Notes: generated by a model not told the origin, from the sequence alone. A stretch of 64,000 bases of DNA from Candidatus Undinarchaeota archaeon (GCA_964519305.1 CAZFHY010000005.1:96001-160000), one strand, 5' to 3'; shown: positions 20,526 through 48,832, counted from the first letter of the stretch. Numbers and translations: made by a program.

Positions 20526-20529
20526 TACC

Positions 20530-26314: not shown

Positions 26315-26315
26315 G

Positions 26316-31362: not shown

Positions 31363-31894
<532 letters not shown>

Positions 31895-31906
31895 TGAGGG
31901 ATAATC

Positions 31907-33758: not shown

Positions 33759-33785
33759 AAGCCCCGCCTGATTCATCCCACGACG

Positions 33786-34295
33786 ATGATCGTCCCGCGA
33801 CGCGTGTTCCTGACAGCAGGCCGAGGGCAGCATCCCGACCGCATCCACGCCTTCGAGCTGGCGCTCCGGGACGCGGGGATCGAACAGTGCAACCTCGTGC
33901 CCGTCTCCAGTGTCCTCCCACCGGGGTGCCGGATCGTGGACTGCGAGGAGGGGACCGCAGCCCTGGTACCGGGAGCCATCACGTTCTGTGTCATGGCACG
34001 TGATGAGAGCAATGTTGAAGGCGCCCCTCTGTCTGCTTCTGTTTGCATCGCCGTCCCCAAGGACACTTCACGCCATGGTTATATCGGCGAGTGCGCTGGA
34101 AACGGTCGATCCCTGAAAGAGATTGAGGCCGATGCACGCGAACTCGCACAGGGTATGATGGCCACGTCCTCGGAAATCGACAACTCGCGCGCCGATGAGG
34201 TCTGTGCGGCAGCCCCCACCATCTCCTGCGTAACCAGGGTAAAAGAGGGTGTGTGGAACGTGGCGGTCGCCGTGGCTGTCTTCCTTGAGAACTAG
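33786..34295 (+). CDS. pdaD: Pyruvoyl-dependent arginine decarboxylase
   Basis: FELALRDAGI..NLVPVSSVLPP (Ser-Ser autocleavage site), GYIGE. Confidence 0.88.
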   Translation: MIVPRRVFLTAGRGQHPDRIHAFELALRDAGIEQCNLVPVSSVLPPGCRIVDCEEGTAALVPGAITFCVMARDESNVEGAPLSASVCIAVPKDTSRHGYIGECAGNGRSLKEIEADARELAQGMMATSSEIDNSRADEVCAAAPTISCVTRVKEGVWNVAVAVAVFLEN

Positions 34296-34960
34296 TCCCT
34301 GTGTAGCACCCGGTAACGCAGGAGCACCTCGGTCCCTATCACTTCGAAGTCCTCCAGCTCAAGATGAGGTGCGTCGTCGACCGACATCACGCCCTCTCCT
34401 CCAACCAGCGGCACCGAATCCGTCCCACCTATGACAAACGGAGCGACCGTGAGATGGACCTTGTCCACTAGACCGGCCGCGAACATAGCAGCGTTAAGTC
34501 CACCCCCGCCCTCCAACATCGCAGTGCGTACACCGCGCGCGGCCAGATCATCGAGCATTGCCGCCAGGTCGACGTGCCCCTCTCCCAACACAACTACATC
34601 GCACGTCTCACGCAGAGCGGCGATCCTTGCTGATGGTGCTTTTCGTGATACGTAGACCACTGTGGGCGCACCATCATCGAGCACACGAGCACCCAAAGGT
34701 GTCCTGGCCCTGCCGTCCACAACGACACGCAAGGGGCTCGGGCCGTCCACGAGGCGGGTCGTGAGGCTGGGGTCGTCGGCCAGCACTGTCCCAGAACCCA
34801 CCAGGATAGCGTCAACTCTGGCGCGGAGGGCGTGCACGCGGACAAGGTCATCCGGGCTCGATATGCGTGAATCGCCTGCTCGCGTCGATATCCTCCCGTC
34901 CAGGCTCATGGCCGACGAGAGTACGATCTCAGGCTTCGAGGTCCCCGGTTTTGATGACAT
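34292..34960 (-). CDS. ribD: 2,5-diamino-6-ribosylamino-pyrimidinone 5'-phosphate reductase (RibD C-terminal / ArfC type)
   Basis: AMSLDGRI, VHALRA, VGSGTVLADDPSLT, EGGG.LN, APFVIGG; no deaminase domain. Confidence 0.88.
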   Translation of the reverse strand: MSSKPGTSKPEIVLSSAMSLDGRISTRAGDSRISSPDDLVRVHALRARVDAILVGSGTVLADDPSLTTRLVDGPSPLRVVVDGRARTPLGARVLDDGAPTVVYVSRKAPSARIAALRETCDVVVLGEGHVDLAAMLDDLAARGVRTAMLEGGGGLNAAMFAAGLVDKVHLTVAPFVIGGTDSVPLVGGEGVMSVDDAPHLELEDFEVIGTEVLLRYRVLHRD

Positions 34961-36248
34961 CGTTCACCGTCTTCCCGAGCTTGTCCACAGGAACACGCTC
35001 TTCATCGCCGGAGGTCATGTTCCGCAGCACGACCACACCCTCCTTCAGGTCCCGAGGGCCCACCACGAGCACGTAGGGGACGCCCATGATGTCGGCGTAC
35101 TCGAAGAGCTTGCCCAGCTTCCGGCCACGGAGGTCCAGGTCGGTCGCGATTCCAGCGCCCCGGAGCACCTGTGCCAGCTCAATGGCCTTCGACCGCATCG
35201 TATCGTTCACGGGTGCAACCAGCACTCGGGCCATGGTCCGTGTGTCGGGGACCATCTTCCGTTCGATCATGATCGCCATGAGACGCTCGATACCAAGGGA
35301 TATGCCCACTGCGGGTTGTGGTTGAGCGCCGTACATCCCGATAAGACCGTCGTAGCGCCCGCCTCCCGAGACGCTCCCCACGCCACCTTCGGGGATGTTG
35401 GCTTCGAAGATCGGTCCGGTATAATAGGATAGGCCTCGAACCAAAGACAGGTCGATGACCACTTCGTCACTGATACCGAAAGCATTGAGATGATCTGCGA
35501 TCTGGCGGAGCTCATCGATGCCCTGTTTTCCCAGCGGGTGCTCGCCAACAAGTTCCTCGGCCTTGGACAGCACCTCCCCGGGAGGGCCTGAAATCTCGAT
35601 GAAGTCAAGGATGGACTCGATAGCATCGAACTCGATGCCCTTCTCCTCCATCTCCTCCCACACGCCCTTGCGTCCGATCTTGTCGATCTTGTCCATGGCT
35701 CGGAAGGCTGCCGGGATGAGTTCCTCGGGAATGCCGCACACGGCCGCCAGCGCCTCTAACAGCTTGCGATGATTGATCCTCACCTGGAAACTTGCGAACC
35801 CGAGAGCGCGCAGGCACTCGACCGCGACCGCGACCGCCTCGGCATCTGCGAGCATCAATGGAGAACCCACGACGTCCACGTCGGCCTGCCAGAACTCGCG
35901 GTATCGCCCTTTCTGCTGGCGCTCGTACCGCCAGACCCTGGAGATATGGTAACGCTTGAAAGGCATCGGGAGATTCGGGTTCTGGGCCACGAGCCGGGCC
36001 AGAGGCGTGGTTAGATCGAAGCGTAATCCCAGCTTCCTGCCGGACTTGTCCTCGAAGGCGTAGATCTGCTCGTCGACCTCATCACCGCCCTTGCAGGTCA
36101 GCGTCTCAAGGTGCTCGAACGCCGGCGTCTCGATGGGTGAGTATCCATAGCGGGCAAAGATGCCCTCGATGACCTGGATGACGTGCTTGCGGGCGATCAT
36201 GACCTCGGGAAGGAAATCACGCGTACCGCGGGGCGTCTTGAGCTCCAT
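34929..36248 (-). CDS. hisS: Histidyl-tRNA synthetase
   Basis: RGTRDF, LRFDLT, WRYER..GRYREFWQ.D, RGLSYYTG, GGGRYD, GIER. Confidence 0.97.
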   Translation of the reverse strand: MELKTPRGTRDFLPEVMIARKHVIQVIEGIFARYGYSPIETPAFEHLETLTCKGGDEVDEQIYAFEDKSGRKLGLRFDLTTPLARLVAQNPNLPMPFKRYHISRVWRYERQQKGRYREFWQADVDVVGSPLMLADAEAVAVAVECLRALGFASFQVRINHRKLLEALAAVCGIPEELIPAAFRAMDKIDKIGRKGVWEEMEEKGIEFDAIESILDFIEISGPPGEVLSKAEELVGEHPLGKQGIDELRQIADHLNAFGISDEVVIDLSLVRGLSYYTGPIFEANIPEGGVGSVSGGGRYDGLIGMYGAQPQPAVGISLGIERLMAIMIERKMVPDTRTMARVLVAPVNDTMRSKAIELAQVLRGAGIATDLDLRGRKLGKLFEYADIMGVPYVLVVGPRDLKEGVVVLRNMTSGDEERVPVDKLGKTVNDVIKTGDLEA

Positions 36249-36348
36249 AGCCCGGAGGACAAGGCCAAGCTTTTCAAACTTTCCGAAGCCGGCCCGCGGA
36301 TAAATTTATTAAAGAACCCGGCACTCCCATCGCGCAGGTGTCCCATCG

Positions 36349-38088
36349 ATGGCGAAGAAGGACAAGAAGCCCTCCAAGAAGAAAGATGATAATGTGATGG
36401 AGGCTCTCCACGAGATCGAAGAGACCGAGCATCGTATCGAGGAGGTTGAGCATCGCATCGAGGAGGAGGAGCACATCATCGAGAACGAGCTCCACCAGTT
36501 AAGGGAGGAGCAGCGTGCCATGGACATCTGGATCATTCTTGTAGTAGTGCTGGGCATCATCATAACCATCGGTGCCATCGGATACTACTTCCAACAGGGA
36601 CGCACACTGCCCACGGACCGACCGGTCCCGACCATCATGCCCACGGCGGGCCCGGGAGAGATCCCGAGCTTGGATACTCTGGGCCCCTCATCACTGCTCG
36701 ACAGCGCTCGTGTCCCACTCAGTGACCTGGGCGGGGCTTCCTGCGGAGCCAACATCACGCTCTTCTCTGCTCCGAGCTCGCTCAACTCGGTAAAGGCGCG
36801 CGATGCCCTGCTGCGCATGGGCGAGCGCATCACGTTCACAGAGGCCTGCATCGGATTCAATCCTCAGGATGCGGCCGATTGCGAGCGGCTCGATGGTGCT
36901 GAGACGTTCGCACGCACTATGGGACTGGTCCGCAGGCTCAATGCAACAGGAGCCTTCACCGGCGTGCCTACTGAACTCATCGGGTGCCGCTACCTCCGCT
37001 CGGGCACATTCGCCCACTTGAGCCAGAAGGCCGAGGACGCTGAGCTGGAGACGCTGATATGCGCCCTCTCCGATCCCATGCCAGATTGGTGTGGGGTGGA
37101 TGTCCGTTATGCTCGTCCACCCGGCTGCACGACCTGCGAGTCGTTCGATAAGCTGGTCGCAGCAATCTCCAATCCCCGTGCACGACTGGTCGATGGTACG
37201 GCAACCCAGATGGCGGGTCGCGAGCCTCCTTATATTCTCATGCCAAAGGAACTCCTCTACTACGACACCCGACTGTCCAAGACAGTCGAGAGTCTCATCT
37301 TAGGGGAGATGGGGAGCATCACCTATACCGCTATGGAGAACCACTGGGTGTTCATCCCGCCCCAGGACCTGGTGGCGACCCTAGTAGAGGAGCCTTGCCC
37401 GATCTGCCCCATATCGCCTCTTGGCGATGTTATCAAGGACATCCAATCCGTTGGTGGCCGGATCGTTGAGGGCGATAAGTCCAATATGCGGCCCATCGCT
37501 TCAGCGCTATATATCGAAGCTGAAGCGGTCCGCTCCAACTACCCCGCTATCCAGGCACTGCTCAACAAGTATAAGGGCCTGCTGCACTTCATGAACCTGG
37601 ACGAGACGGACCCGAACACTCCGCTGGTGATCGCCCCGCTCATCTATGCCCGTGATGACAACTCCTGCGGCAACGCCACAGACGCATACCTCTTCGTGTT
37701 CTATACGCCGAACGATGCGGCCTCCGAAGGGGTCGCCCTGACCAGTCAGGTCCTGACCGAGCTGTTCGATGACGCCTTGCATATCCGTACTGAGTGCGTC
37801 AAGACCAAAGAGGGTGACGCCACGATCTGTGCGGCCGACGATCCCGAGAGCTACATGGAAGCCGAGCAGCTGCGCGCCATCTTCGGAATACGTAACGTCC
37901 CCGCATATGTGTTCAACTGCCGGTATGTCTGGCCTGATACCCAATTCACCGACGATCCCAATGTCAACAAGGACCGGGTCGTTGCAGAGGTAGAGGTTCT
38001 GCGTAAGAACCTGTGCATACTCCTTGATCATAACAACACCGCGTGCGGCGAGATACACGGCTCATTAGCGATCCCGGATATGGGTTGA
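36349..38088 (+). CDS. Membrane-anchored multi-domain thioredoxin-like protein with an N-terminal His-heptad coil
   Basis: One TM helix; CTTC and CPIC motifs; duplicated GVPT..CRY / NVPA..CRY segments. Confidence 0.6.
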   Translation: MAKKDKKPSKKKDDNVMEALHEIEETEHRIEEVEHRIEEEEHIIENELHQLREEQRAMDIWIILVVVLGIIITIGAIGYYFQQGRTLPTDRPVPTIMPTAGPGEIPSLDTLGPSSLLDSARVPLSDLGGASCGANITLFSAPSSLNSVKARDALLRMGERITFTEACIGFNPQDAADCERLDGAETFARTMGLVRRLNATGAFTGVPTELIGCRYLRSGTFAHLSQKAEDAELETLICALSDPMPDWCGVDVRYARPPGCTTCESFDKLVAAISNPRARLVDGTATQMAGREPPYILMPKELLYYDTRLSKTVESLILGEMGSITYTAMENHWVFIPPQDLVATLVEEPCPICPISPLGDVIKDIQSVGGRIVEGDKSNMRPIASALYIEAEAVRSNYPAIQALLNKYKGLLHFMNLDETDPNTPLVIAPLIYARDDNSCGNATDAYLFVFYTPNDAASEGVALTSQVLTELFDDALHIRTECVKTKEGDATICAADDPESYMEAEQLRAIFGIRNVPAYVFNCRYVWPDTQFTDDPNVNKDRVVAEVEVLRKNLCILLDHNNTACGEIHGSLAIPDMG

Positions 38089-38093
38089 GTATC

Positions 38094-38954
38094 ATGAGCG
38101 TCATTATATCCAGCCCCATGGACGTGACCCTCGCCATCGAGGGAAAGCATCCACTTACCCGGGAAGAACTCCTTTCTCTTGTCAACGGCTTCGATGGGTA
38201 CGAGAGCCGGGAGGGTGCCGATGAGCGCATCGTGGTCGACGTGAAGAGCGTGCATGAGAGCGGTACACTCGTGCTGCATCTCTGTCCACAGTACAAGGTG
38301 AGCTATGCAGAGATCGATAAATTCATCACGCGGATGATCAGTGAGATACTCAAAGGCTGCGGGCTCGAGAAGTGTTCACATCGCATCATCGAGATCACGT
38401 GGCACATCGAGGAGCTGGGCGTGCCCAGCGAGCTAGCGCCGATCCATGTGGACGCTCCGCTGGAGGATGAGGTGTCAACGGAGCCGGCCTTCACCCTGGA
38501 ACTCGGTAGGGCGTACTACATCGAGGAGCGTCGGAACGAGTTAGGGCTCAGTATCTTCGCGGACCATCTCCACCACGGATTCCACGGGCTGGCCATCACT
38601 CGTATCTATCCCGAACACATAAGAGACGAGTACAAACTCCAGAAGACGCCAATAGTATGGCTGACACATACCGAGCATAGCGACGACATACTCGCGACGG
38701 ACAACCTCCACATGCTCTCGGACATGGTCCGCAACGACATACTCGGTAAGTACGAGCAGAGCATCATCCTTCTTAGCGGACTTGAATACCTTAGTACCCA
38801 TGCGGGCTCCCGACCTGTTCTCAAGTTCCTTCAGTATCTGGTGGACCAGGTGGCCTTGCACAAAGCGTTGTTGATAATCTCTCTCAATCCATCGGCGTTC
38901 AATGATCTGGAGTTCAACCTCCTCACACGGGACCTGATCAGGTACGAGGAGTGA
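38094..38954 (+). CDS. DUF835 (inactive RecA/KaiC-like) domain protein
   Basis: GLAITR.YP, PIVWLT, IILLSGLEYL, LKFL..L.D. Confidence 0.75.
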   Translation: MSVIISSPMDVTLAIEGKHPLTREELLSLVNGFDGYESREGADERIVVDVKSVHESGTLVLHLCPQYKVSYAEIDKFITRMISEILKGCGLEKCSHRIIEITWHIEELGVPSELAPIHVDAPLEDEVSTEPAFTLELGRAYYIEERRNELGLSIFADHLHHGFHGLAITRIYPEHIRDEYKLQKTPIVWLTHTEHSDDILATDNLHMLSDMVRNDILGKYEQSIILLSGLEYLSTHAGSRPVLKFLQYLVDQVALHKALLIISLNPSAFNDLEFNLLTRDLIRYEE

Positions 38955-38961
38955 GCTTCCC

Positions 38962-39495
38962 TTACCATCCCAGTCTAATGGCCGCCCGGTTGGTCGCAAC
39001 ATGCAGGGGGACCGCGAGGACAATGAAGGATACTGCCACATCGGACGGGACGGGGGTTAGCACCCAGATGGCTACCAACGCTCCGAACGCAGCGTCCAGC
39101 TGATCGAAAGGGAACCAGTCCTCGCCCGGGGACACTCCCCTTCTCCTTTTCACGAAGCTCTCGACAAGGTCGCCGGTCAGAGCGCCTGCTCCGAGCATTG
39201 CCCCGACAAGGAGCGGATGGATCCCCTGCACTATGACATAACGCCGGGGGACCTGGACCGATGCCTGGACCAGGGCCGTGACCGCTCCCCCGAGCACTCC
39301 AAGGACGAGCCCCCGCAGGGTCTTATGATCTCCAAGGAGACGCTTACCATCTCGCCATGTCCTCCCGCCATCCACCGGAGCTCCCAGGACAGGGAGGTCG
39401 CGAGCGATAAGGGGCATCTGGTTGGCCATCATTGCAGGCAGGAACACCCACATCGTACGGAGCACGAGATCGACCGGCCAAGGGAGAGGTACCAC
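38962..39495 (-). CDS. carS: CDP-archaeol synthase (DUF46)
   Basis: PA..AN..P, PVDGG..DGKR.LGDHKT.RG, GDLVESFVKRR.G, PFDQLD, LH..N. Confidence 0.9.
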   Translation of the reverse strand: MVPLPWPVDLVLRTMWVFLPAMMANQMPLIARDLPVLGAPVDGGRTWRDGKRLLGDHKTLRGLVLGVLGGAVTALVQASVQVPRRYVIVQGIHPLLVGAMLGAGALTGDLVESFVKRRRGVSPGEDWFPFDQLDAAFGALVAIWVLTPVPSDVAVSFIVLAVPLHVATNRAAIRLGW

Positions 39496-39527
39496 GAATA
39501 CCGAGTCGTGCCCATACTAAATAAAGC

Positions 39528-40361
39528 CTATGCGTTGGTCGCGCTCCAACGGGGTAACACTGCTACGGTCACTTGTGTCTTGCTTCCATCGTTCTTATCG
39601 CACCGGAAATCCAGGGCCGTGTTGATGGTCGCGGGCAGCTCCGCATCAAAGTGTAGCATGTTCCCTTCCACCATCTCCCGGGGTACCTCCTGGAAGGACG
39701 AGCAGCGCCCTTCAACCCCATCATCACGAAGGGTGCACAGTTTCACTTCAAGGGTCCGTATACACCATCCTTCGGGCACGGGGATATCGATGGTCACGTT
39801 GTACTCAGGTACTACAGGTTCGTCCGGACCCTTTATCGTGATGGAGAACTCCTCGTCGATATCGACGGTTTCAACGCTCAGACATTCATCGCAGGGTTCC
39901 ACGGCCTCGGGAGTTACTAGGACTATCAGCCAATCGGGGCCGCGTGGCGGAAGCAACCGGATCGTGGTGGCTCGCGCCGAGGGGACCTGATCAGCGGGGG
40001 CGGGCGCCCATCCAGCTCCTGCCACCACTGGACCGACGATCTCGGGTAGATCGGGGTCCTGTGTGGGAGTTACGGGTGCCTCTGAGGGGACCGGCACAGG
40101 TGGCCCCTCAAGGCTTGATTTGGTAGATGGCACTAGCGGACCTACCACGAACTCCGGAGAAGGTGGTCCCTCGACCGACAAGCGGGCATCCTGCTCCTTG
40201 ACCTTGGTTGGACTAGTGTGCTCCACGGTAACGACGGTCGGCCCAAGGAACACGGCCGTGATGATTATGAGCGATGCGATGAGCAGGACGACATGGAGAT
40301 GATCGGTCCCGGGCACAGACCGCGGTCGGGATACCACGCTTTTATTGCTTTCTTTCTCCAT
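39528..40361 (-). CDS. Membrane-anchored hypothetical protein (Pro-rich stalk, Cys-containing C-terminal domain)
   Basis: N-terminal TM helix, Pro-rich region; overlaps the upstream radical SAM stop. Confidence 0.55.
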   Translation of the reverse strand: MEKESNKSVVSRPRSVPGTDHLHVVLLIASLIIITAVFLGPTVVTVEHTSPTKVKEQDARLSVEGPPSPEFVVGPLVPSTKSSLEGPPVPVPSEAPVTPTQDPDLPEIVGPVVAGAGWAPAPADQVPSARATTIRLLPPRGPDWLIVLVTPEAVEPCDECLSVETVDIDEEFSITIKGPDEPVVPEYNVTIDIPVPEGWCIRTLEVKLCTLRDDGVEGRCSSFQEVPREMVEGNMLHFDAELPATINTALDFRCDKNDGSKTQVTVAVLPRWSATNA

Positions 40362-41676
40362 GCCGCCGCTCCTCCCTTAGTGTGTCCAGTGATTGTGTGA
40401 GCCAGGGCTCACCATCGCGCACAACCAATCCTGCATCGCACCGCAGTGCGTAGGCCACATCAAAGGTGTCGGGATCGCACAACGAGCCCGCGCCAACGAC
40501 AAGGAGCCCGGGCGTGGCCAGAGTATCCAAGGGCCCCATTCCTGCCAGTGGCCGGACCGCAGCGGACAGGAGGGTGCGCACGAGATTCGGTTCCCGCACA
40601 AGCGGTAACGCCTCGGCGGCCAGCTGGGCGGCCGCACCCCATCTCCAGCGATGACGGGTCACACGGAACCTTTCCAGTGCGTCGTTCAGCCCATCAATGT
40701 CGACGAGCTCTTCCGCGGCAGTCCACGTGCCATCGGTACGTCGGAGCATTGGATAGAACTGGTTGTACAGGCAACTGGGGACACCCAGGAGGTTGAACGC
40801 AGCGTAAAGCGCCTTCTGGACGGTGGTCCAGCCGGGGGGGGTTATTCGTCCATCCGAGGCGTCCGCCACCATGGACACGACCTCCTCGACCCGCAGCCGC
40901 GCCGTCGGACCTAGCCCGGCGATCCCAAGATGACCGTAGGAGCGGAAGAACACACCGCGTACGAAGGAATGGCCCAGCGCGTAGGTCAGAAGCTCTGATA
41001 CGGCGTCGTCGTTCACCCCTCGGGCCAACGTGCATTCCAGACCCGTGGGCATATCGGCCCTCTCCAGAGCATCCAGGGCCTTGCGTTTTATCGCTGTCAA
41101 ATCCCTGCCCCGGAGCGTCTTGTCCCCCTGTCCGGAAAGACCATCTAGCTGGAGATGTACCTCACCCAGACCCGCCGTACGCAGTTCGTCCAGCATACCT
41201 TCCTCGGCCAGAAGGAGGCCGTTCGTGGCAAGCACGGGCACATTCCCGGACGCGATGACCGCGGTCACGATGTCCGGCAGGTCGTTGCGGACCGTGGGCT
41301 CACCGCCATATAGCTGGACCTTGGCCCCAGTAACGCCCGCAAGCAGCCTTGCGACGTCCCCGGGAGAAGGCTCACGCTCATCCCCGCGCTTTGGTCCTGA
41401 GCGGGTGAAGCAGATAGGACAGGCGAGGTTGCACCTGTCCGTGAGGGGAAGGTTCAGGTTCTTGTCACCGATGCCGGGCAGAGGTGCCATCATCTCCTCA
41501 TAGAAGGCGGCCAGCTCGGCCCATGCGGGACCATCCTTGGCCACCAGCGCACTGGAATCCCCATGCTCCGGGCAGTGCTTGACCAGATGGACCATCCCGT
41601 CCTCCAGCACAAGAGAGGCCGGCACCGCGGCGAGGCAGGTGGGACAGGTACCCAGGGTCACCCGCAGGAGAACCAT
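40342..41676 (-). CDS. Radical SAM protein, tetraether synthase (Tes/MJ0619)-like, paralog 2
   Basis: CPTC..CPEHG N-terminal metal site, CNLACPIC, GGEPT, TNG, LQLDG, LCDPDTFD..C. Confidence 0.75.
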   Translation of the reverse strand: MVLLRVTLGTCPTCLAAVPASLVLEDGMVHLVKHCPEHGDSSALVAKDGPAWAELAAFYEEMMAPLPGIGDKNLNLPLTDRCNLACPICFTRSGPKRGDEREPSPGDVARLLAGVTGAKVQLYGGEPTVRNDLPDIVTAVIASGNVPVLATNGLLLAEEGMLDELRTAGLGEVHLQLDGLSGQGDKTLRGRDLTAIKRKALDALERADMPTGLECTLARGVNDDAVSELLTYALGHSFVRGVFFRSYGHLGIAGLGPTARLRVEEVVSMVADASDGRITPPGWTTVQKALYAAFNLLGVPSCLYNQFYPMLRRTDGTWTAAEELVDIDGLNDALERFRVTRHRWRWGAAAQLAAEALPLVREPNLVRTLLSAAVRPLAGMGPLDTLATPGLLVVGAGSLCDPDTFDVAYALRCDAGLVVRDGEPWLTQSLDTLREERRHGERKQ

Positions 41677-43031
41677 ATCCCCTCCTCCGGATCTCCCCGG
41701 GCCTTAAGACTACGCCTCTCGAGCTCGAGGTGAGCGTAGGGCATAGTCTGTGTGCCTTCAGCGGTGAGTTGTAGCCGATCACAGGCATCTGCCACCTGGA
41801 AATCGAACGAGTAAGGCTCGCACATGGCGCCGAACCCTAAGATGAACAAACGGTCCGATACTCCCGAATCACCATAGGAGAACATCTCGTGCTTGACGAG
41901 CTTGCCCTTCATCACCGACAGTGCATCACGGATGAACCTCAGCGAACGCGGATGTGCCGCGCGCCGCGCGACCTGTGCAAGGAACAGAGGTAGTGCTAGC
42001 ATCGAGCCCTCGCGGATCCTGTGACGGAATGCGTCCAAAGCCGTTTGAATGCCATGGACATCGAACAGCTCGTTCACGAGCTTGTAGCCACCGTCAGGTG
42101 TGCGGTACATGAAAGTGTACTGGCTGTAATGACACCGACGCAGGTGCACAAGCTTGTAGAATGCATATAGCAGTCGCTGGAGCTCGTAGACGCTCCTAAG
42201 CGAGATGCGTCCTCTCGTGGATTCGTCGAACCGCTCGATCATGTCCTCGATGGCTACCGAGCTGGCGTGCTCGAGCCCGGCCTTGCCCATGACAACGTAG
42301 GATCGGAAGAAAAGCCCCCGGATGTGCGGGCGTGGGACGCAGTACTCGAACGTGGGCACCATCTGGTCCTCGTTGAGGTCATGAGCGACTGTGTACTCTA
42401 GCACCGTCGGTATCCCCAGTTCCTCGAGGTTATCCAGGGCCTTGGTCTTGGAGGCGACCATGGGCTTGCCGCGGAGCACCTTGTACACACGCTCCTCAAA
42501 ACCGTCGAACTGTAGGTGGACCTCCTCAAGTCCGGCATCTCTGAGCTCCTCCAGATATGCACGGTCCTCGAGCTTGATGCCGTTGGTATAGAGCACGGGG
42601 ATATTGCCCGATCGACGGATGAGACGGATTATGTCCGGTAGGTCCTTGCGCACCGTGGGTTCACCGCCGAAGAGGCAAAGACGTACACCTTGCATGCCCT
42701 CGATCATCGCACCCACATCCTCGAGAGAGGGATCCGCGTATCGGGTGACGTTGGCATTGGTGAAGCAGATAGGACAATTGATGTTACAGCGCATTGTGAC
42801 GTAGAAGTTGTACTCCAGCTCCTCTTTCTTCCCGCCTATGGCAAGGCCGCGATAGAAATCAGCGAGGCCCAGATAATACCAGGACCGCGAGGAAAGCTCG
42901 ACCGTGATGGGGCCGTGGTCCGGACAGGTCTTGCGCATCAACACCCGCCCACCCTCCTCGTCCACGACGGCAGGGATGCGACGTAGGCACCGCGGGCACA
43001 CGGACTCGGTCTCCTTGACCCGCTGCATCAT
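41658..43031 (-). CDS. Radical SAM protein, tetraether synthase (Tes/MJ0619)-like, paralog 1
   Basis: TESVCPRC..KTCPDHG, CNINCPICFTNA, GGEPT, LQFDG, MCEPYSFD..C. Confidence 0.8.
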   Translation of the reverse strand: MMQRVKETESVCPRCLRRIPAVVDEEGGRVLMRKTCPDHGPITVELSSRSWYYLGLADFYRGLAIGGKKEELEYNFYVTMRCNINCPICFTNANVTRYADPSLEDVGAMIEGMQGVRLCLFGGEPTVRKDLPDIIRLIRRSGNIPVLYTNGIKLEDRAYLEELRDAGLEEVHLQFDGFEERVYKVLRGKPMVASKTKALDNLEELGIPTVLEYTVAHDLNEDQMVPTFEYCVPRPHIRGLFFRSYVVMGKAGLEHASSVAIEDMIERFDESTRGRISLRSVYELQRLLYAFYKLVHLRRCHYSQYTFMYRTPDGGYKLVNELFDVHGIQTALDAFRHRIREGSMLALPLFLAQVARRAAHPRSLRFIRDALSVMKGKLVKHEMFSYGDSGVSDRLFILGFGAMCEPYSFDFQVADACDRLQLTAEGTQTMPYAHLELERRSLKARGDPEEGIWFSCG

Positions 43032-43052
43032 CCATGGGCTTGCGCAGAAAAC

Positions 43053-43058
43053 ATTAAT
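43053..43058. promoter_or_regulatory. Putative shared bidirectional TATA element (ATTAAT)
   Basis: Palindromic AT box 22 and 25 bp from the divergent starts at 43031 and 43083. Confidence 0.4.
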
Positions 43059-43082
43059 AGGGTACGGTATAACCGTCGTGCG

Positions 43083-44534
43083 ATGGCCGACCTAGTCCTC
43101 GTCCAACCCCGCATCGGGTTCGTTGACGAGGTAGTGTCCCCCTTCAGCCTACCCCTGGCACTGCTCCATGCTTGTTCCCGTGCAGTGGCCGATTTCGATG
43201 TGACGATCATCGACCAGCGCATCGATCCGCGGTGGAAGGAGACCCTCCGGCATGAGTTAGCGTCAGGACCACTGCTCGTCGGTTCCACGGCCATGGCCGG
43301 GCGACCCGTGGCCCATATGCTGGAGGCCGCCACCGTTGTCAAGAAGGAAACAACGGATGTGCCATTCGCCCTGGGCGGTATCCTGGGGACCATGCTCCCT
43401 GAGCTGGCACTGGCCGATCCGCGCATCGACATGGTCGTCCGTGGCGAGGGTGAAAAGACCCTCCCTGCACTCCTTGCGGCCCTTCGCGATGGCCGTCCGG
43501 TACACCGTGTGGCTGGCGTGTCGACGATCATTGACGGGCGCCCTGTGCACTCTCCGGACCGATCTCCCATAGAGCTCGATGCCCAGCCAGAGCTGCCCTA
43601 CGACCTTGTGGACGTGGCGCGGTATACACCCATCCGTCTGGGAAGACGATCGATGGTCATGGAAAGCTCTCGGGGATGCCCACATAGGTGCGCTTTCTGC
43701 TACAACACGGTCTACAATCGTCGACGGTGGCGAGGCCAGAGCGCCGAGCGCATGGTGGAACGGGTGCGATACGTGGTAGAACGGTTCGGTATCGGGAACG
43801 TACGTTTCGAGGATGAGAACCTGTTCGCGGACCTCGGTCGAGTCCGACGTTTCGCCCGACTCCTTGTCAACGAAGGGCTCGATGTAATCTGGGAGGCCCA
43901 AGGGGTTCGTGTAGAGTCCATCATGGCCTTTAACGAAGAGGATATGCAACTGCTGGAGCGCAGCGGATGTCGTCAGCTCAACTTCGGAGTGGAATCAGGT
44001 TCCCAGCCGGTACTGGACCGGGTGTGCAAGGACATCCGGGTAGAGGACGTCATGGCAGTGAACCAGCGTCTGGTGGGTTCGGATATAGCCCCTGTTTTCA
44101 ACTTCATGTGCGGTTTCCCGGATGAAGGGCCAGAGGACCTACGTGCCACTGTCGACCTAATGTTCACGCTCCTTGGTGATAATCCCCGTGCCCGTGTACC
44201 GGGCGCCTTCATCTTCGTCCCTTATCCTGGAACGGCCCTGTATGAGGAGGCTGTGTCCTTGGGTTTCGACCCCCCCGATTCTCTGGCCCACTGGGCCGAC
44301 GTTGCCGCCGACCATGTGGTAGTGCCGTGGGTGGGGGAAGATGAGCGCAAGGTCCTCGAGGGTCTGTCATTCCTCTCGATGTTCCTGGATGTTGGTTCCG
44401 GACAGCTGGCCATGAATCCCGCAGTAGCGGCGCTGGCAAGGCTCTACCGACCACTGGCACGAGCCCGGGTGGGACGTATGTACTTCGACCATCTATGGGA
44501 GCGGCGGCTGGCGCGTCGGTTCGTTCCCGAGTGA
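43083..44534 (+). CDS. B12-binding domain radical SAM protein (class B-like)
   Basis: LPLAL, IDQR, GG..T..PE, VRGEGE, SRGCPHRCAFC, DENLF, GVESGS, GFPDE, PYPGT. Confidence 0.9.
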   Translation: MADLVLVQPRIGFVDEVVSPFSLPLALLHACSRAVADFDVTIIDQRIDPRWKETLRHELASGPLLVGSTAMAGRPVAHMLEAATVVKKETTDVPFALGGILGTMLPELALADPRIDMVVRGEGEKTLPALLAALRDGRPVHRVAGVSTIIDGRPVHSPDRSPIELDAQPELPYDLVDVARYTPIRLGRRSMVMESSRGCPHRCAFCYNTVYNRRRWRGQSAERMVERVRYVVERFGIGNVRFEDENLFADLGRVRRFARLLVNEGLDVIWEAQGVRVESIMAFNEEDMQLLERSGCRQLNFGVESGSQPVLDRVCKDIRVEDVMAVNQRLVGSDIAPVFNFMCGFPDEGPEDLRATVDLMFTLLGDNPRARVPGAFIFVPYPGTALYEEAVSLGFDPPDSLAHWADVAADHVVVPWVGEDERKVLEGLSFLSMFLDVGSGQLAMNPAVAALARLYRPLARARVGRMYFDHLWERRLARRFVPE

Positions 44535-44537
44535 GCC

Positions 44538-46373
44538 TCAGGGTTGCACGAGCCATAGCCCGACCGAGCCATCAGGCAGAGTGAACGCTACCTTGGTCCT
44601 TCCGCGAGGTATTGCGGGGGGTACCGTCACACGTTTCTCACCGAGGCGGATCTCGTCAAAGGATGCTCTGACGAGGTACTCGCCCGGCGGTACGCTGAGG
44701 CCGATGAGGGACCGGTACTGGCCAGCACAAGGTCGCTCGCACGTCCCGCCCTCTACGGGTACGAACCTCACTTCGATCACCCCTGCTGTCCCCCGGTCCA
44801 GTTCGAACCCCATCTCCCGGCAGATATCGGGTAGGTCCAGAGTTGCGGACACGTTTAGCTCGCCGGGGGCCGTGACCACTTCGAACGGGACCACATCGGG
44901 GAGCGGACCGCATGTTCGGTCCAGAACATCCACGTCCGTGATGCTCACGGTGAATGGGCCTCCGGGGGTGAGCAGCATGGTCCCCGCGGGCAGTGGGGGT
45001 CGCTCGAAGGAGAGCCCGGTCCCATCCCATCCACTTGCCAGATACCTGTCGGGGAGCACGCGTCTATGGAAGAGCACTTGGGCATAAGCGTTCTCGATAG
45101 CGGGGTCGATCGCCAGGGACGTCCCCGTTTCAATTGCATCAAGGGCCGTCCGGAGCGGCTCCCCTGTGGCCAATGCCACATCGGGGAGAGCGGGGTAATC
45201 GACGAGACGCTCGGCCTGGACCGTAGCGAAGGAGAGCGCGATAAGACAAGCAATAATGAGTGTCACGTTTTCCCCGTGACGACGCCGCATGACGCCGAGG
45301 GCATAGGCCGCGAGCAGGTGCGGGAGTGGTAGCAGGGCAATCGCCCTACGTGCCTGTGCTACCTCAATGTCGGTGGCAGCACCGGCCAATGGGAAGATCA
45401 TGAGCCAAGCCACCAGTGCCCACCGCCCCTCGCGTAGGGCGAGCCCGAGCCCCAGCAGTGCAAGCACTGCGGTCACCGGTTCCAACAGGCCGCGCTCGGG
45501 AAGGCCGTTGAGGGGATCGGGATCCCCTGAGAAGAAAAGGAACGATGGCGATATGTGAAGGGAATAGTTACGCAGGAAGCGGAGCGTCGTGGCCGCGAGC
45601 GGTGACGTCGTACCAAAACGCGCCATGTCGAGCCTGACTACCTCGTCGGAGGCGATCGACAACATCCCTATTCGAGCATCCGCCCGGTCAGGATGTGTGA
45701 TGTGAAGCTTGACGAGCGGCGCGAGGATAAGGGCCGCTGCCAGCACCCCTAACAGGAGATATCGTTTTTGGCCCGCGAGTTCACGCCGGCGTAGCACTAG
45801 CACGGCGTATGCGAGAAGGGGGAGAAATGCCTTCCCCACAGCGTAGGAGTACATCCCAAGTGCTAGAGCGGGTCCGGCAAGAACGAGATCCCGTCCCTTG
45901 CCCATGAGGAAGTATAGCGAAAGCGCCGTCCAGAATGGCAGGAGCACAGGCTCCAATGCAAGCCGGCTGAAGTGGATGTGCCATGGGCACACTGCAAGAA
46001 GCAAGGCTGCCACACGGGCTTCCCGGGGTCCTATGAGACGTCGGGCGAGCAGGTAAGTGGCCGCCACTCCTGCGATGCCGAACAGCGCCGAGACCGCACG
46101 GACCGAGGTGGTAGATAGTCCGAGCACCGCGACAAGCGGCATTGTGGCATAGACGTTCACCGGGTCCTTGTAATCACCGAAGGACTCGAGGTAGACAGGC
46201 CACGGATTGTCTCGGTGGTCGCGACCCGTGAGTAGAAGTGACCAGGCATCGTACCCGATGGAGGCCTCGTCGAAGGTGAGGCCTGGAGGACTTTGGTCGA
46301 GGGCCGGGAGACGGAGCAGGGCTGCCAGGACCAGCACGACCATCATCCCCTGCCATCCACCTCGGACAGTCAT
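44538..46373 (-). CDS. ArnT/PMT (GT39/GT83-like) polytopic glycosyltransferase
   Basis: LRL..L..PPGL..DEAS.GYDA, multiple TM helices, PWHIHFSR; start inferred from TATA spacing. Confidence 0.8.
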   Translation of the reverse strand: MTVRGGWQGMMVVLVLAALLRLPALDQSPPGLTFDEASIGYDAWSLLLTGRDHRDNPWPVYLESFGDYKDPVNVYATMPLVAVLGLSTTSVRAVSALFGIAGVAATYLLARRLIGPREARVAALLLAVCPWHIHFSRLALEPVLLPFWTALSLYFLMGKGRDLVLAGPALALGMYSYAVGKAFLPLLAYAVLVLRRRELAGQKRYLLLGVLAAALILAPLVKLHITHPDRADARIGMLSIASDEVVRLDMARFGTTSPLAATTLRFLRNYSLHISPSFLFFSGDPDPLNGLPERGLLEPVTAVLALLGLGLALREGRWALVAWLMIFPLAGAATDIEVAQARRAIALLPLPHLLAAYALGVMRRRHGENVTLIIACLIALSFATVQAERLVDYPALPDVALATGEPLRTALDAIETGTSLAIDPAIENAYAQVLFHRRVLPDRYLASGWDGTGLSFERPPLPAGTMLLTPGGPFTVSITDVDVLDRTCGPLPDVVPFEVVTAPGELNVSATLDLPDICREMGFELDRGTAGVIEVRFVPVEGGTCERPCAGQYRSLIGLSVPPGEYLVRASFDEIRLGEKRVTVPPAIPRGRTKVAFTLPDGSVGLWLVQP

Positions 46374-46398
46374 CGCCCCTCCTGAGTCTCCCAAGGCA

Positions 46399-46404
46399 TT
46401 TAAA
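46399..46404. promoter_or_regulatory. Putative shared bidirectional TATA element (TTTAAA)
   Basis: 26 bp from ATG 46373 (-) and 24 bp from in-frame GTG 46428 (+). Confidence 0.4.
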
Positions 46405-46427
46405 GCATGTCCGTCCCATCCGCGAGC

Positions 46428-47165
46428 GTGACTGGGCCCTTCGAGGAGCGGTATGCGTCCTGGATGCACCGGACGCGTTGGGACGCCACCCTTGTGTGGC
46501 GTATCAGGACATTGCTCAATCCTCTGCCCGGAGATACCCTTGTCGATGTGGGATGCGGTGCCGGTCACCTCTGCATCGCTATGGGGCAGCGAGGGTTACA
46601 ATGTATTGGGATCGACAGTTCACCGGCCGGTTGTCGTGTGCTGGAAAAACGTGGTGGTGCCGCGGTCCTTGGGGACATGAATGTACTTCCACTTCCGGAC
46701 GCTGCGTTCGACCTGGCCGCATGTAGCCATGTGCTCGAGTATACGCTCGATCCCATCAGTTTCCTTACCGAGGTCCGACGTGTTCTCCGTCCAGGAGGGC
46801 GCGTCTATGTGCTCGTGTCACGTCCGCCCGAGCGTGTGACGCTGCCACTTCGGCCAGTCGTCAGACACTTCGACCGCGTAGGGAAACGGCAGGCCCATCT
46901 TGACGTGGACGAGCTGATAGCTGCTGCGCGAGAGGCCGGTCTTGAGCCTATTGCCACGGGCATGAGCGGACACCTCATCATGGTCAAGGCGGCAGTGATC
47001 CACTGGATCATCGCTCTCGTATCCCGGGACGTCGCGGACAGGCTCCTGTTCCCATTACTCTCTCTTGATGACCGACTTGCGGGACTGGTCGGAGGCGGTG
47101 TTGACGCGTGGGCCGTATTCCGGCGCCCAAAAGAGGAACATCAGGAGCCGGACAACACCCGGTAG
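46428..47165 (+). CDS. Class I SAM-dependent methyltransferase
   Basis: VDVGCGAG, LPLPDAAFD, SHVLEY, RVLRPGG; alternative ATG at 46407. Confidence 0.85.
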   Translation: MTGPFEERYASWMHRTRWDATLVWRIRTLLNPLPGDTLVDVGCGAGHLCIAMGQRGLQCIGIDSSPAGCRVLEKRGGAAVLGDMNVLPLPDAAFDLAACSHVLEYTLDPISFLTEVRRVLRPGGRVYVLVSRPPERVTLPLRPVVRHFDRVGKRQAHLDVDELIAAAREAGLEPIATGMSGHLIMVKAAVIHWIIALVSRDVADRLLFPLLSLDDRLAGLVGGGVDAWAVFRRPKEEHQEPDNTR

Positions 47166-48832
47166 AGCATGACGCTCCGAGCCTTCTCTGTATCGATCCA
47201 TGAGCGACACGTACCCGCGCGGGCCGCCACCTCAAGGGGCAAGGTCCGTTGGACCGTCGCACTTTCACGGACCGGCACCCAGTCAGCGCATGTGTCCAGA
47301 TAGAGGACACACTCGCTCCGTGCTAGAGCCCGGAGCCGGTCGCGTAGCTTGACATCACCGGCGGCCGCACGGACGTCAACAGCTGGGCTACCGGTATAGA
47401 ACGCCGTGGCCAGCGGGATAGGGGATACCATGGTGCATTCCCTGAAAGGGGATGAGGCCAGCCATTGACCGGTGCGCGCGTTCTGGAAGAACAGGTCGTC
47501 TAGAGGGCCCGCTGCCGTCCCTGCATTCCCGCTATGGAGCTGGAGCATCGCTGCTGACCCCTGAGTATGGAACCGGAGGAGCATTATCACCAGCAAGGCC
47601 GCCGCCGTCCGACCACCGCCCGGGAACGAGTTCGCGAGCGCACCTAGACCGACACCGGCAAGCACAGGTAGCAGGCACACTGCGTTGAAAACATGGCGTG
47701 GATCAGAGGCGAAGAAGCTATTGGCCGCGATGAGCGCTATTACATAACCCAGCACAAGTACATGGCCGCGCTGTGGTCGTGCTGCCACACCAGCGATTGC
47801 CAGAAGTGTGGCCCACACGACCAGCGGGTCCACGTCACCCCACTGGTTCCCAAGCACCCTTATCATAGGATCGTCCGACGGCTCGGGCGGCCCTGGAGTC
47901 CAGTAGCGGACACCGGCGAAAACATGGAGGAGGTAACCCGGTAATGATCCATTGGTCCCGATGTCCGATCCCTCTTTGAGGACCTTGTCGAAAGAGAACT
48001 CCTCGAAGGCGCCCTCTGCCCAGGGAGATGGGAGCCCGCCTTCGGGCGCAGCACCCGGCGGGAGCGCTGCGAGGAGTAGGAGAGAGGGCACCAGCGCTAC
48101 CGCTGTGAAGAGAGCCGCTCGTCGAACCCCCGTGCCATACCAGAGGTAAAGAGCGATAACGGGAACTACCACCGTATCGGCCGTGCGCACCTGAGTAGCA
48201 AGACCTGCTGCGATGGCGGCCGCCACTGTCCATGGGAATGCCCGGCCTCGACGGGATGAATAGACCGCAAGGACCAGGGCCAGGAGCGTCAGGGTAAAGG
48301 AGGAGGACGCGCTCCACCCTGTGACCGAGTAGCGTATGTGCTCAGGACTGAGAGCGATAAGAGCGGCCGCTGCGAGCGCGCCCCAATGATCACGGAACAG
48401 AATGTATACAAGCACAAAGATCAGGGGGACCGCGAGGGTTCCCGCGATCGCTGACACAAGGGCTGCTGCCCGGTCCGTGCCGCCCAGGAGAGCGAGCGGT
48501 ATTGTCGTGAGGGCGGCGTAGCCCGACCGATGTGCGGGCGGGAGCAGGTGGAGGTTCAGAGGATAGCCCGCCCGTTGGTATACCAGCATGTGGCGAGCCG
48601 ATAGGAGTACCTCGTACTCGTCCGAGTACACTATCGCTGCTGCCTCGATGTTGCTGAGGCGGAGCCCCGCAGCCACTAGTACAAGCAGGAGGAGACAGTT
48701 GCGCACCTCGTGGGGAAGGTCGAGCACTTCACGTCGATGGCGTCGAACGAGCAGCACAAGAACGAGAGCGAGGGCCCAGATCATGAGATGCAGCATGACG
48801 GGTACGAGCGTGAGGGGATCGAGCGCGCCCAT
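47141..48832 (-). CDS. PMT/GT39-like polytopic glycosyltransferase
   Basis: LR..SDEY, many TM helices, AAALIALSPEHIRYS. Confidence 0.7.
   Translation of the reverse strand: MGALDPLTLVPVMLHLMIWALALVLVLLVRRHRREVLDLPHEVRNCLLLLVLVAAGLRLSNIEAAAIVYSDEYEVLLSARHMLVYQRAGYPLNLHLLPPAHRSGYAALTTIPLALLGGTDRAAALVSAIAGTLAVPLIFVLVYILFRDHWGALAAAALIALSPEHIRYSVTGWSASSSFTLTLLALVLAVYSSRRGRAFPWTVAAAIAAGLATQVRTADTVVVPVIALYLWYGTGVRRAALFTAVALVPSLLLLAALPPGAAPEGGLPSPWAEGAFEEFSFDKVLKEGSDIGTNGSLPGYLLHVFAGVRYWTPGPPEPSDDPMIRVLGNQWGDVDPLVVWATLLAIAGVAARPQRGHVLVLGYVIALIAANSFFASDPRHVFNAVCLLPVLAGVGLGALANSFPGGGRTAAALLVIMLLRFHTQGSAAMLQLHSGNAGTAAGPLDDLFFQNARTGQWLASSPFRECTMVSPIPLATAFYTGSPAVDVRAAAGDVKLRDRLRALARSECVLYLDTCADWVPVRESATVQRTLPLEVAARAGTCRSWIDTEKARSVMLYRVLSGS

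Follow-up and report, generated by a model that had tools for sequence, protein, structure and literature searches.

What does an uncultured marine archaeon (Candidatus Undinarchaeota) do with two overlapping radical SAM genes that are followed by genes for a membrane protein and a CDP-archaeol-synthase-like enzyme and face a B12-binding radical SAM gene? In the window, that is, the whole 64,000-nucleotide stretch of DNA analyzed here, rsA (41658–43031, minus strand; 457 aa), encoding a Tes/GDGT-MAS-like radical SAM enzyme of the "short" branch described below, overlaps by 19 nt with rsB (40342–41676, minus strand; 444 aa), encoding a second such enzyme. The 3′ end of rsB overlaps by 20 nt with mem277 (39528–40361, minus strand; 277 aa) for a protein predicted to be membrane-anchored by a single pass, and a gap of 32 nt precedes carS2 (38962–39495, minus strand; 177 aa from a GTG start) for a divergent CDP-archaeol-synthase-like cytidylyltransferase, the four genes being overlapping or closely packed. 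Across a divergent spacer of 51 bp (43032–43082) from rsA lies a gene (43083–44534, plus strand; 483 aa) for a class B (B12-binding) radical SAM enzyme, hereafter designated B12-rSAM. An earlier note on this DNA had described the two overlapping paralogs with their motifs, as well as the divergent B12 gene across 51 bp, and both descriptions match the coordinates exactly, with the motifs conserved; its order of a membrane protein followed by carS also holds, although the former is a single-pass surface protein by prediction and not a polytopic one. Given the 19- and 20-nt overlaps, the 32-nt gap, the gene order kept in the sister species, and purifying selection, we read rsA-rsB-mem277-carS2 as one operon, with B12-rSAM probably as its partner across the spacer. 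A neighboring block, assigned by Pfam, consists of two GT-C (PMT_2) glycosyltransferase genes (44538–46568 and 47141–48832, both minus strand) and a class I SAM methyltransferase gene between them (46407–47165, plus strand); it is convergent with the B12-rSAM gene and is regarded here as a neighbor, not as a part of the locus.

Both rsA and rsB, which are 36% identical to each other, contain the Pfam domains PF23545 (Zn_ribbon_HMPTM) and PF04055. Across 21 aligned sequences, the residues found to be invariant (in rsA numbering) include C12, C15, C36, and H39, C82, C86, and C89, GGEP 122–125, and C300, C404, and C417, and every family-invariant residue is present in rsB. The first four correspond to a rubredoxin-type CX2CX20CX2H iron site (C11/C14/C35/H38 in rsB), C82/C86/C89 to the radical SAM motif CX3CX2C, and G122–P125 to the SAM-binding GGEP motif, the latter two being the same in rsB, and HLQFDG of rsA reads HLQLDG in rsB. 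In these three motifs, including the identical spacing of the first, the two proteins resemble Tes/GDGT-MAS, whose rubredoxin-type motif CX2CX20CX2H is described in the available text of Lloyd 2022. Moreover, the best Foldseek matches of the AF2 model of rsA (pLDDT 85.5) were 7TOM and 7TOL (TMq 0.79; 26–27% identity; 491–500 columns), the next being MoaA with a TM of only 0.37, and rsB matched 7TOL over residues 5–288 with E 2.7e-38. By these matches, the GDGT-MAS/Tes fold extends through the whole of rsA and rsB, minus the [Fe4S4]N domain, and the relationship to Tes/GDGT-MAS proposed earlier is borne out by the TM of 0.79 over about 495 columns.

The two proteins nevertheless differ from Tes, being 40–60 residues shorter. 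The ligands of [Fe4S4]N in Tes (C73/C77/C80/His83), whose columns are 100% conserved in 20/20 canonical Tes sequences, are gaps in all of the 74 short-branch sequences, rsA and rsB included. Two ligands of the C-terminal cluster of Tes, C338 and C455, are equivalent to rsA C300 and C417 and invariant in the short branch, whereas the third, C470, is not conserved there (M430 in rsA and Q428 in rsB), and the labile Met439 of the MHFxD loop, which is Met in 20/20 canonical Tes sequences, is replaced by G401 in rsA and G397 in rsB. The short branch has an invariant Cys of its own (rsA C404), three residues past the Met439 position, which would be, judging from the alignment, a ligand of the C-terminal cluster, and a branch-specific Arg310, differing from Tes. 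This comparison by column agrees with the previous remark that the C-terminal Tes motifs are only partly matched. Because Met439, Cys470, and the [Fe4S4]N domain, all of them hallmarks of how Tes works, are missing, the chemistry of the short branch may differ from that of Tes.

Identity with Tes itself is ruled out by the missing [Fe4S4]N domain and Met439 and by scores of 163.0 bits (rsA) and 127.3 bits (rsB) on the Tes model (NF045702; cut-off, 450 bits), on which a Methanocaldococcus control gave 727.1 bits. TrsS (NF045646), a member of the same superfamily, gave rsA and rsB their highest NCBIfam scores, but these, 183.6 and 165.6 bits, respectively, lie far below the cut-off of 490 and rule out this assignment as well. 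Unlike rsA and rsB, true TrsS members (L066, 553 bits; L081, 581 bits) have a second CX3CX2C motif and fall in a two-motif superclade, and the cut-off was passed by none of 17 short-branch representatives (maximum, 206.1 bits). By their sequences, rsA and rsB belong to an uncurated "short" (one-motif) branch, for which we found no paper; for TrsS, too, we found no function, the literature found naming it in a table only. As for a second copy of the Tes family, such a paralog, when expressed, gave macrocyclic archaeol in trace amounts and GDGT not at all, according to the available text of Zeng 2022, and this paralog, likened to the present ones by description alone, sets a precedent for a different or weak activity.

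The carS2 product matched PF01864 with 112.4 bits (gathering threshold, 22) and the CarS model NF003114 with 144.0 bits against a cut-off of 148; since database gene calls give 163 aa, its start may lie later than the GTG that gives 177 aa. CarS2 aligns full-length with CarS from Aeropyrum pernix (ApCarS, 5GUF) and retains each of the conserved polar residues at the CTP/metal site (PxD, DGxR, GD, SFxKRR, DQLD, H, and N), as do 7/7 members of the CarS2 clade, but it is only 33–35% identical to the canonical CarS of the same genome (contig C6; 167.6 bits on the CarS model). Thus, the carS gene reported at this locus in the earlier note is CarS-like, although a second, divergent copy. The seven sequences of the clade have fixed changes at hydrophobic or small positions, e.g., Y→M22, F→A31, and AP→W127-F128; the catalytic residues are intact, and the hydrophobic positions differ from those of the housekeeping copy. 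For mem277, a hydropathy scan predicted one TM segment near residues 16–44; a linker rich in Pro follows, and the C-terminal domain contains six Cys. The protein has no Pfam, NCBIfam, or Atlas match and no paralog in the genome, and its counterpart in the sister species shows 76.5% identity over 277/277 residues.

The five-gene block is collinear in the sister species, with 87% nucleotide identity and no frame breaks, and purifying selection acts on each of the five genes (dN/dS: rsA, 0.066; rsB, 0.11; B12-rSAM, 0.10; mem277, 0.23; carS2, 0.24). It may be added that evolution is faster in carS2 and mem277 than in the radical SAM genes. The full cluster with carS2 was found in two species of one genus only, and the linkage to carS is conserved in both, in line with the earlier note. 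The best orthologs outside the genus of rsB (P0009, 69%) and CarS2 (P0085, 59%) are both singletons on a 5140-base contig, the shared contig size being suggestive only as a sign of rsB-carS2 linkage beyond the genus. Seven short-branch paralogs occur in the genome (G000) and seven in that of the sister species (G001), and rsB sits in a subclade of the tree separate from rsA. Judged from the tree, the two are old paralogs within this seven-member in-genome family, neither close duplicates nor the outcome of a recent duplication; the suggested rsA/rsB heterodimer gained no support. Other in-genome paralogs adjoin genes for polyprenyl synthetase, LPG_synthase_TM, PMT_2, and B12-rSAMs, and their loci also hold carbamoyltransferase and glycoside hydrolase genes.

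In B12-rSAM, PF02310 (49.9 bits) and PF04055 (78.6 bits) were detected, the translation contains CPHRCAFC, and no NCBIfam equivalog cut-off was reached, the best being ApyD with 132 bits against 750. Its closest in-genome paralog (43%) adjoins a close rsA paralog on contig C16. Homologs of B12-rSAM co-locate with short-branch (one-motif) genes at 17/46 loci and with two-motif genes at 0/32, where the loci counted are kin and not independent samples; the association with a B12-rSAM noticed earlier is that of a recurrent neighbor of the short branch. Among bacterial Pfam-annotated loci, the adjacency was seen in 10/21 (9/9 in one set and 1/12 in the other), and the nearest relatives of B12-rSAM outside the genus (≤45% identity) are mostly bacterial (Omnitrophica, Elusimicrobia, and Latescibacterota). 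The layout of B12-binding plus radical SAM domains is common to the locus enzyme and GrsA/B, Gmm, GDGT methylases, and Ted, likened here by layout alone; lipid-modifying B12-rSAM enzymes, as described in the available texts of Garcia 2024 and Garcia 2025, provide the comparison for genomic association with the Tes family.

Canonical Tes was found neither in the genome (99.8% complete; best, 132 bits) nor in the sister species (98% complete; best, 123.5 bits) at the cut-off of 450, which answers the earlier suggestion to look for a tes gene elsewhere. Both species have a complete ether-lipid pathway, represented in the genome by GGGPS (224 bits) and a G1PDH-type enzyme, with five GGR paralogs scoring above the cut-off, and each has a separate canonical CarS. 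In Methanobacteriaceae, canonical Tes lies ≤1 kb from canonical carS at 8/8 loci by BLASTP (7/8 by tblastn), which is, by analogy, an independent precedent for Tes-CarS linkage.

The explanation that we favor, though tentatively and at somewhat less than even chances, is that the rsA-rsB-mem277-carS2 operon tailors an isoprenoid membrane lipid, B12-rSAM probably cooperating; as the function, we infer radical tailoring of the lipid with CDP activation next. Each of rsA and rsB would form a 5′-deoxyadenosyl radical from SAM and abstract H from an unactivated sp3 carbon of the lipid tail, and the C-terminal cluster (rsA C300/C404/C417) would hold or relay the substrate radical, leading to C–C coupling or other C–H functionalization. 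As old paralogs, rsA and rsB would serve two different steps or different positions. The B12 enzyme would add methyl groups or otherwise modify the chain, and CarS2 would then CDP-activate the modified phosphatidate-type lipid for head-group attachment. Because no canonical Tes was found in the organism, tail-to-tail coupling may come from one or more of its seven paralogs of the short branch. Weighing against this explanation are the loss of the Tes hallmarks, the limited B12 adjacency among the bacterial loci, the restriction of the full cluster to one genus, the faster evolution of carS2 and mem277, and the varied bacterial contexts described below. A bolder proposal, which we regard as a long shot, is that the short branch offers another means of coupling tails, one that dispenses with the N-terminal cluster and the labile Met, rsA and rsB in this lineage lacking Tes making cross-linked isoprenoid lipids (membrane-spanning, macrocyclic, or other) at the archaetidic-acid stage and a dedicated CarS2 then activating the coupled product. 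If true, two independent enzymatic routes to tetraether-type lipids would exist, the pathway would be reordered with coupling ahead of head-group attachment, and gene surveys based on Tes would overlook a class of tetraether producers.

In bacteria, short-branch genes neighbor those for DegT sugar aminotransferases, GT2, WbqC, epimerases, U32 hydroxylase-like proteins, and FAD oxidases, and in 4/4 Myxococcota/Proteobacteria members examined, in unrelated contexts, the enzyme is fused to hemerythrin. To judge from these neighborhoods, the short branch is not uniformly lipid-linked, and, because its bacterial members stand in such sugar-/glycolipid-type and other varied contexts, we infer a lipid substrate rather than report one as a finding. 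The DegT, GT2, WbqC, and epimerase genes of the bacterial operons, the PMT_2, LPG_synthase_TM, carbamoyltransferase, and glycoside hydrolase genes at the other paralog loci, and the two PMT_2 and SAM methyltransferase genes directly beside the B12 gene would all suit a substrate that is not a core ether phospholipid but a lipid-linked glycan, a glycolipid, or a polyprenyl-phosphate carrier, with the flanking genes acting in the same process and CarS2 cytidylylating, or acting CTP-dependently on, a polyprenyl-type phosphate. We consider this rather unlikely, since CarS2 is CarS-like throughout (144 bits against 148, with all the CarS polar residues), the convergent PMT_2 block lies outside the rsA operon, and the operon has no sugar-nucleotide genes.

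The heterogeneous bacterial contexts, including the hemerythrin fusions, and the co-translational coupling of mem277 between rsB and carS2 could also point to a substrate other than a lipid, i.e., a cofactor, a small metabolite, or a peptide or protein, possibly mem277, the adjacency of carS2 being a lineage-specific accident. This is improbable in our estimation: the GDGT-MAS fold is retained in full, with its C-terminal domain, the first 150 residues of mem277 contain no Cys, the protein has no lipobox, and the linkage persists in both species under purifying selection. A lipid has been found bound to purified GDGT-MAS. The C-terminal domain forms lipid pockets in 7TOL, according to the available text of the structure paper (Lloyd 2022). 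Least credible by far is C-methylation of pterin in the biosynthesis of methanopterin, as MJ0619 was formerly annotated, whence the Pfam domain name; the window encodes H4MPT-dependent enzymes (Mch, 27147–28076; Fwd-like subunits, 22968–27125), so that the organism needs a methanopterin-type cofactor, but the earlier MJ0619 findings were not corroborated and MJ0619 was shown to be a lipid synthase (Lloyd 2022, in the text available), two methylations do not call for as many as seven paralogs, and the operon has no pterin-pathway gene.

Finally, no Rfam elements were found in 36000–47500. On direct reading of the sequence, the divergent spacer contains the A/T-rich elements ATTAATA (43053–43059) and GGTATAA (43066–43072), which could act as archaeal TATA boxes for the two transcripts, both of leaderless type.

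The locus is a two-enzyme operon in an archaeon that has no Tes; both enzymes belong to a trimmed, uncurated branch of the Tes/GDGT-MAS fold. The operon comes with a dedicated second CarS, and a B12-binding radical SAM enzyme is associated with it. ORF listing and translation bore out the gene layout described in the earlier note: on the minus strand, the radical SAM genes rsA (41658–43031; 457 aa) and rsB (40342–41676; 444 aa), both carrying the Pfam domains PF23545 (Zn_ribbon_HMPTM) and PF04055, lie with mem277 (39528–40361; 277 aa) and the CarS-like gene carS2 (38962–39495; 177 aa counted from a GTG start; PF01864), and on the plus strand lies the B12-binding radical SAM gene (43083–44534; 483 aa; PF02310 and PF04055). 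rsA and rsB overlap by 19 nt and rsB and mem277 by 20 nt, and a gap of 32 nt separates mem277 from carS2. The B12-radical SAM gene diverges from rsA across a 51-bp spacer, in which two A/T-rich elements were read in the sequence; these could be candidate TATA boxes for the two transcripts. No riboswitch or other RNA family was detected within 36000–47500, and a promoter and terminator scan with bacterial models, which are not applicable to archaea, gave nothing beyond shuffled sequences. Eight sequencing runs from two studies, listed as possible sources, were all of DNA and none of RNA. A single hydrophobic segment sits close to the N-terminus of the mem277 product; a Pro-rich linker follows, and the C-terminal part contains six Cys residues. 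The protein is single-pass anchored, not polytopic; it matched no family in Pfam or NCBIfam, no paralog in the genome, and nothing in the Atlas.

The top-scoring NCBIfam models for both radical SAM proteins were TrsS (184 bits for rsA and 166 bits for rsB; cut-off, 490) and Tes (163 and 127 bits; cut-off, 450), though all these scores are far under the curated cut-offs. The sequence match to GDGT-MAS (PDB 7TOL) covers rsA residues 6–299 only, and the second CX3CX2C segment of GDGT-MAS falls in a gap of the alignment. When an AlphaFold2 model of rsA (21-row alignment; pLDDT, 85.5; pTM, 0.87) was compared with the PDB by Foldseek, 7TOM and 7TOL came out on top (TMq, 0.79; 26–27% identity across 491–500 columns), and the next match was MoaA (TM, 0.37). 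In this predicted structure, rsA has the entire fold in common with GDGT-MAS, the C-terminal domain included. A heterodimer model of rsA and rsB scored 0.00 in two runs performed without controls, which speaks neither for nor against binding.

GDGT-MAS is described as having four metal sites (Lloyd et al. 2022, PMC9433317): a rubredoxin-type site, C9X2C12X20C33X2H36; a surface [Fe4S4]N cluster on C73, C77, C80, and a His; the RS cluster; and a C-terminal [Fe4S4]C cluster with a labile Met439, which bonds a substrate carbon. In a column comparison of 74 one-motif and 20 canonical Tes sequences, in which the Methanocaldococcus numbering coincides with that of PMC9433317, the rubredoxin and RS sites were common to both groups, whereas the C73/C77/C80/H83 columns were gaps in all 74 short-branch (one-motif) sequences. 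Canonical C338 and C455 correspond to the invariant C300 and C417 of rsA, but C470 is not kept (M430 in rsA), Met439 is substituted (G401), and an invariant Cys found only in the short branch (C404) occupies canonical position 442. C404, C300, and C417 would make up a putative three-Cys cluster site without a labile Met; an Arg (R310) is almost invariant among the short-branch sequences. The C-terminal motifs named in the earlier note (MHF.D, CIHY, and IPFC) are genuine in canonical Tes and only partially matched in rsA and rsB, in line with the suspicion in that note.

The family was delineated by a scan of species-representative genomes (79 loci), which together with database matches gave 160 members. 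Within the N-terminal 220 residues, 82 members contain one CX3CX2C motif, 77 contain two, and one contains none, and the one-motif and two-motif superclades separate almost cleanly in a FastTree phylogeny. The two-motif superclade comprises canonical Tes (from methanogens, Bathyarchaeia, and others) and TrsS, with loci L066 and L081 exceeding the TrsS cut-off, and none of 17 one-motif representatives reached either the Tes or the TrsS cut-off; hence, the short branch is uncurated. The genes noticed at first reading stand, but their family assignment is refined to the short branch, which by the cut-offs is neither Tes nor TrsS. All seven paralogs of the genome fall, together with metagenomic sequences, in a 25-row clade split from the bacterial members with an SH-aLRT of 99 in a quick tree. 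Within the short branch, rsB groups with the paralogs C5:3513 and C4:131124 in an 8-row clade (support, 93) that leaves rsA outside. By both the FastTree phylogeny and the quick tree, the two tandem genes diverged long ago and are not a recent duplication. A metagenome scan for rsB relatives yielded three loci, two from the sister species and one a 34% relative, and added no lineage.

The window covers positions 96001–160000 of contig C5 in a genome of 3.63 Mb (42 contigs, 99.8% complete), which carries the archaeal markers TFIIE, family B DNA polymerase, L10e, and GTP cyclohydrolase III. GGGPS and a G1PDH-type enzyme are also encoded, as are five geranylgeranyl reductase paralogs over the cut-off, indicating that the organism makes its own ether lipids. 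A canonical tes elsewhere was found with the Tes model neither in this genome, where 34 matches at E ≤ 0.001 included none above the cut-off (best, 132 bits), nor in the sister species (98% complete; best, 123.5 bits); each genome contains seven short-branch paralogs, those of the former all full-length. A true Tes (632 bits) is encoded in G014, a small genome from the class to which both belong.

The B12-radical SAM enzyme of the window has 26 further relatives within the genome, the closest of which (43%) adjoins a close rsA paralog (C16:43257; 41% identity), so that the two pairs look like a duplicated module of a Tes-like and a B12 enzyme. Among 79 loci searched by tblastn (E ≤ 1e-5, at least 200 aa), homologues of this enzyme adjoin one-motif genes in 17 of 46 loci and two-motif genes, whose loci are longer on the median, in 0 of 32; since the loci are kin, this is an association and not a statistic. 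Outside the genus, the top matches are at most 45% identical and mostly bacterial, and one such relative (P0154) and the Tes-like P0005 both come from 6641-base contigs, which is suggestive only. Lipid methylases of the B12-radical SAM type, together with a desaturase and Gms, which is of the SPASM type, have been established (Garcia 2024, Garcia 2025). A Gms requires a length of no less than 400 aa, an N-terminal COG4001 extension, and a SPASM domain (Garcia 2024). Two radical SAM proteins of 338 and 377 aa adjoining two other paralogs were considered as Gms (GMGT synthase) and excluded, because they contain PF04055 only; their best match was HxsC4 (135–138 bits; cut-off, 500).

A CarS encoded on contig C6 (167.6 bits) passes the NCBIfam equivalog cut-off of 148, whereas the window copy scores 144.0; carS2, which is 33–35% identical to the C6 copy, is accordingly a divergent extra copy. 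CarS2 aligns over its full length with ApCarS (PDB 5GUF), and the conserved CarS polar residues (PxD, DGxR, GD, SFxKRR, DQLD, H, and N) are all kept in CarS2 and in 7 of 7 members of its clade, where several hydrophobic or small positions are fixed otherwise than in the canonical, mostly Methanobacteriaceae, set. Judged from these residues, CarS2 is probably catalytically active as a cytidylyltransferase, with a changed lipid site. At Methanobacteriaceae loci (L069, L071, L073, L075, L080, L082, L083, and L088), the distance between canonical Tes and canonical carS, which are arranged in tandem or divergently, is no more than about 1 kb; BLASTP showed this at 8 of 8 loci and tblastn at 7 of 8. 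This proximity is a precedent for the linkage at the rsA/rsB locus.

A record from the sister species (L015) is collinear with window positions 31710–46336 at 87% nucleotide identity. The amino acid identities and dN/dS values were 94% and 0.066 for rsA, 92% and 0.11 for rsB, 91% and 0.10 for the B12-radical SAM enzyme, 76.5% and 0.23 for mem277, and 79% and 0.24 for carS2, compared with a dN/dS of 0.079 for HisRS. Two metagenome contigs (L094 and L095) gave protein identities equal to those of L015, except that rsA is cut off in L094, and were therefore taken as the same species; the full cluster is thus seen in two species of one genus only, and in both the linkage of the Tes-like pair to carS is kept. 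The best orthologs of rsB (P0009, 69%) and carS2 (P0085, 59%) outside the genus are single-member entries, each encoded on a contig that is exactly 5140 bases long, which suggests that the rsB–carS2 linkage may extend more widely. In the sister record, about 1.5 kb of extra sequence (L015 5157–6696) lies between the first PMT_2 and the methyltransferase genes, being missing at window 46336–46393. The DUF835 gene (38043–38954) has an ortholog there with one in-frame stop by tblastn and a low dN/dS (0.068).

The surroundings of the short branch elsewhere were annotated with Pfam at nine bacterial loci and then at 12 further loci. Two contexts recur among the nine. Omnitrophota operons combine up to four short Tes-like genes with 3–7 B12-radical SAM genes, a MiaB-like enzyme, and DegT aminotransferases, to which L032 adds GT2 and WbqC; same-strand operons of this kind occur in L017, L021, L023, L027, and L032 (Omnitrophota and an unclassified bacterium). 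The second context is a cassette of an FAD amine-oxidase-like protein, a Tes-like protein, a peptidase U32 (UbiU/TrhP-like), a protein of about 265 aa without assigned function, a B12-radical SAM(-GNAT) protein, and a small radical SAM protein, accompanied by PEMT/ICMT, DegT, and epimerases. It occurs in several bacterial phyla (L018, L022, L029, L035, L036, and L043) and partially in the present genome (C2:33307–37661, equal to L012:7307–11661), U32 being an anaerobic hydroxylase family. A B12 neighbour was present in 1 of the 12 further loci. All four Myxococcota/Proteobacteria examined (L030, L040, L044, and L052) have, in unrelated neighbourhoods, a short Tes-like protein with an N-terminal hemerythrin fusion, a domain pairing suggestive of regulation by O2, NO, or iron.

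In the genome itself, the neighbours of the paralogs resemble both bacterial contexts and include U32, HxsC4-like radical SAM, and B12-radical SAM proteins, an aminotransferase with a polyprenyl synthetase, LPG_synthase_TM, PMT_2, and a carbamoyltransferase; these and the bacterial contexts tie the short branch broadly to envelope chemistry of lipids and lipid-linked sugars. For the operon, we tentatively favour a reading in which an isoprenoid ether lipid is tailored by radical chemistry and then CDP-activated, at somewhat less than an even chance. Action of the short branch on core ether lipids is putative, and the neighbour contexts cut against a simple lipid reading. A carrier lipid or glycolipid as the substrate is a rather unlikely alternative, and a non-lipid substrate is more doubtful still. 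Pterin methylation is very improbable, and the remaining weight falls on readings outside these four.

Full-text searches on Tes homologs, TrsS, and CarS paralogs returned no description of the short branch. According to Zeng 2022, where Tes homologs were set by BLAST thresholds, a second homolog (MA_1114) yielded no more than traces of macrocyclic archaeol, and no function is assigned to the homologs from bacteria and halobacteria; a 2026 review covers the bacterial homologs bioinformatically only. The presence or absence of Tes is used for inferring GDGT producers and reading tetraether palaeoclimate proxies (Zeng 2022). Given an uncurated branch with seven copies in a Tes-less, ether-lipid-making archaeon with a second CarS, thresholds such as a BLAST value of 1e-50 may merge enzymes differing in cluster chemistry, and unsought lipid modifications, even an alternative coupling route, may exist. 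The trimmed metal sites without the labile Met would offer a clean comparison for the cluster-sulfur capture mechanism proposed for GDGT-MAS, and the operon is a small gene set open to direct testing.

An HdrA/FlpD-like fusion (20284–22971), formylmethanofuran dehydrogenase-like (Fwd-like) subunits (22968–27125), and Mch (27147–28076) are also encoded in the window; this H4MPT-type C1 set, in a genome from which McrA is absent, points to a non-methanogenic archaeal Wood–Ljungdahl-type metabolism. The genome (3.6 Mb) and that of the sister species (3.8 Mb) are placed in a class in which the other 15 genomes sampled measure 0.6–1.2 Mb, and public labels of close relatives conflict ('Candidatus Undinarchaeales archaeon' and 'Methanopyri archaeon'); either the two form a deep branch with large genomes within a DPANN-type class, or their placement is doubtful. 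The toolkit of radical and lipid enzymes is unusually large, with 27 B12-radical SAM ORFs related to the window copy, which is itself included, beside the five geranylgeranyl reductases.
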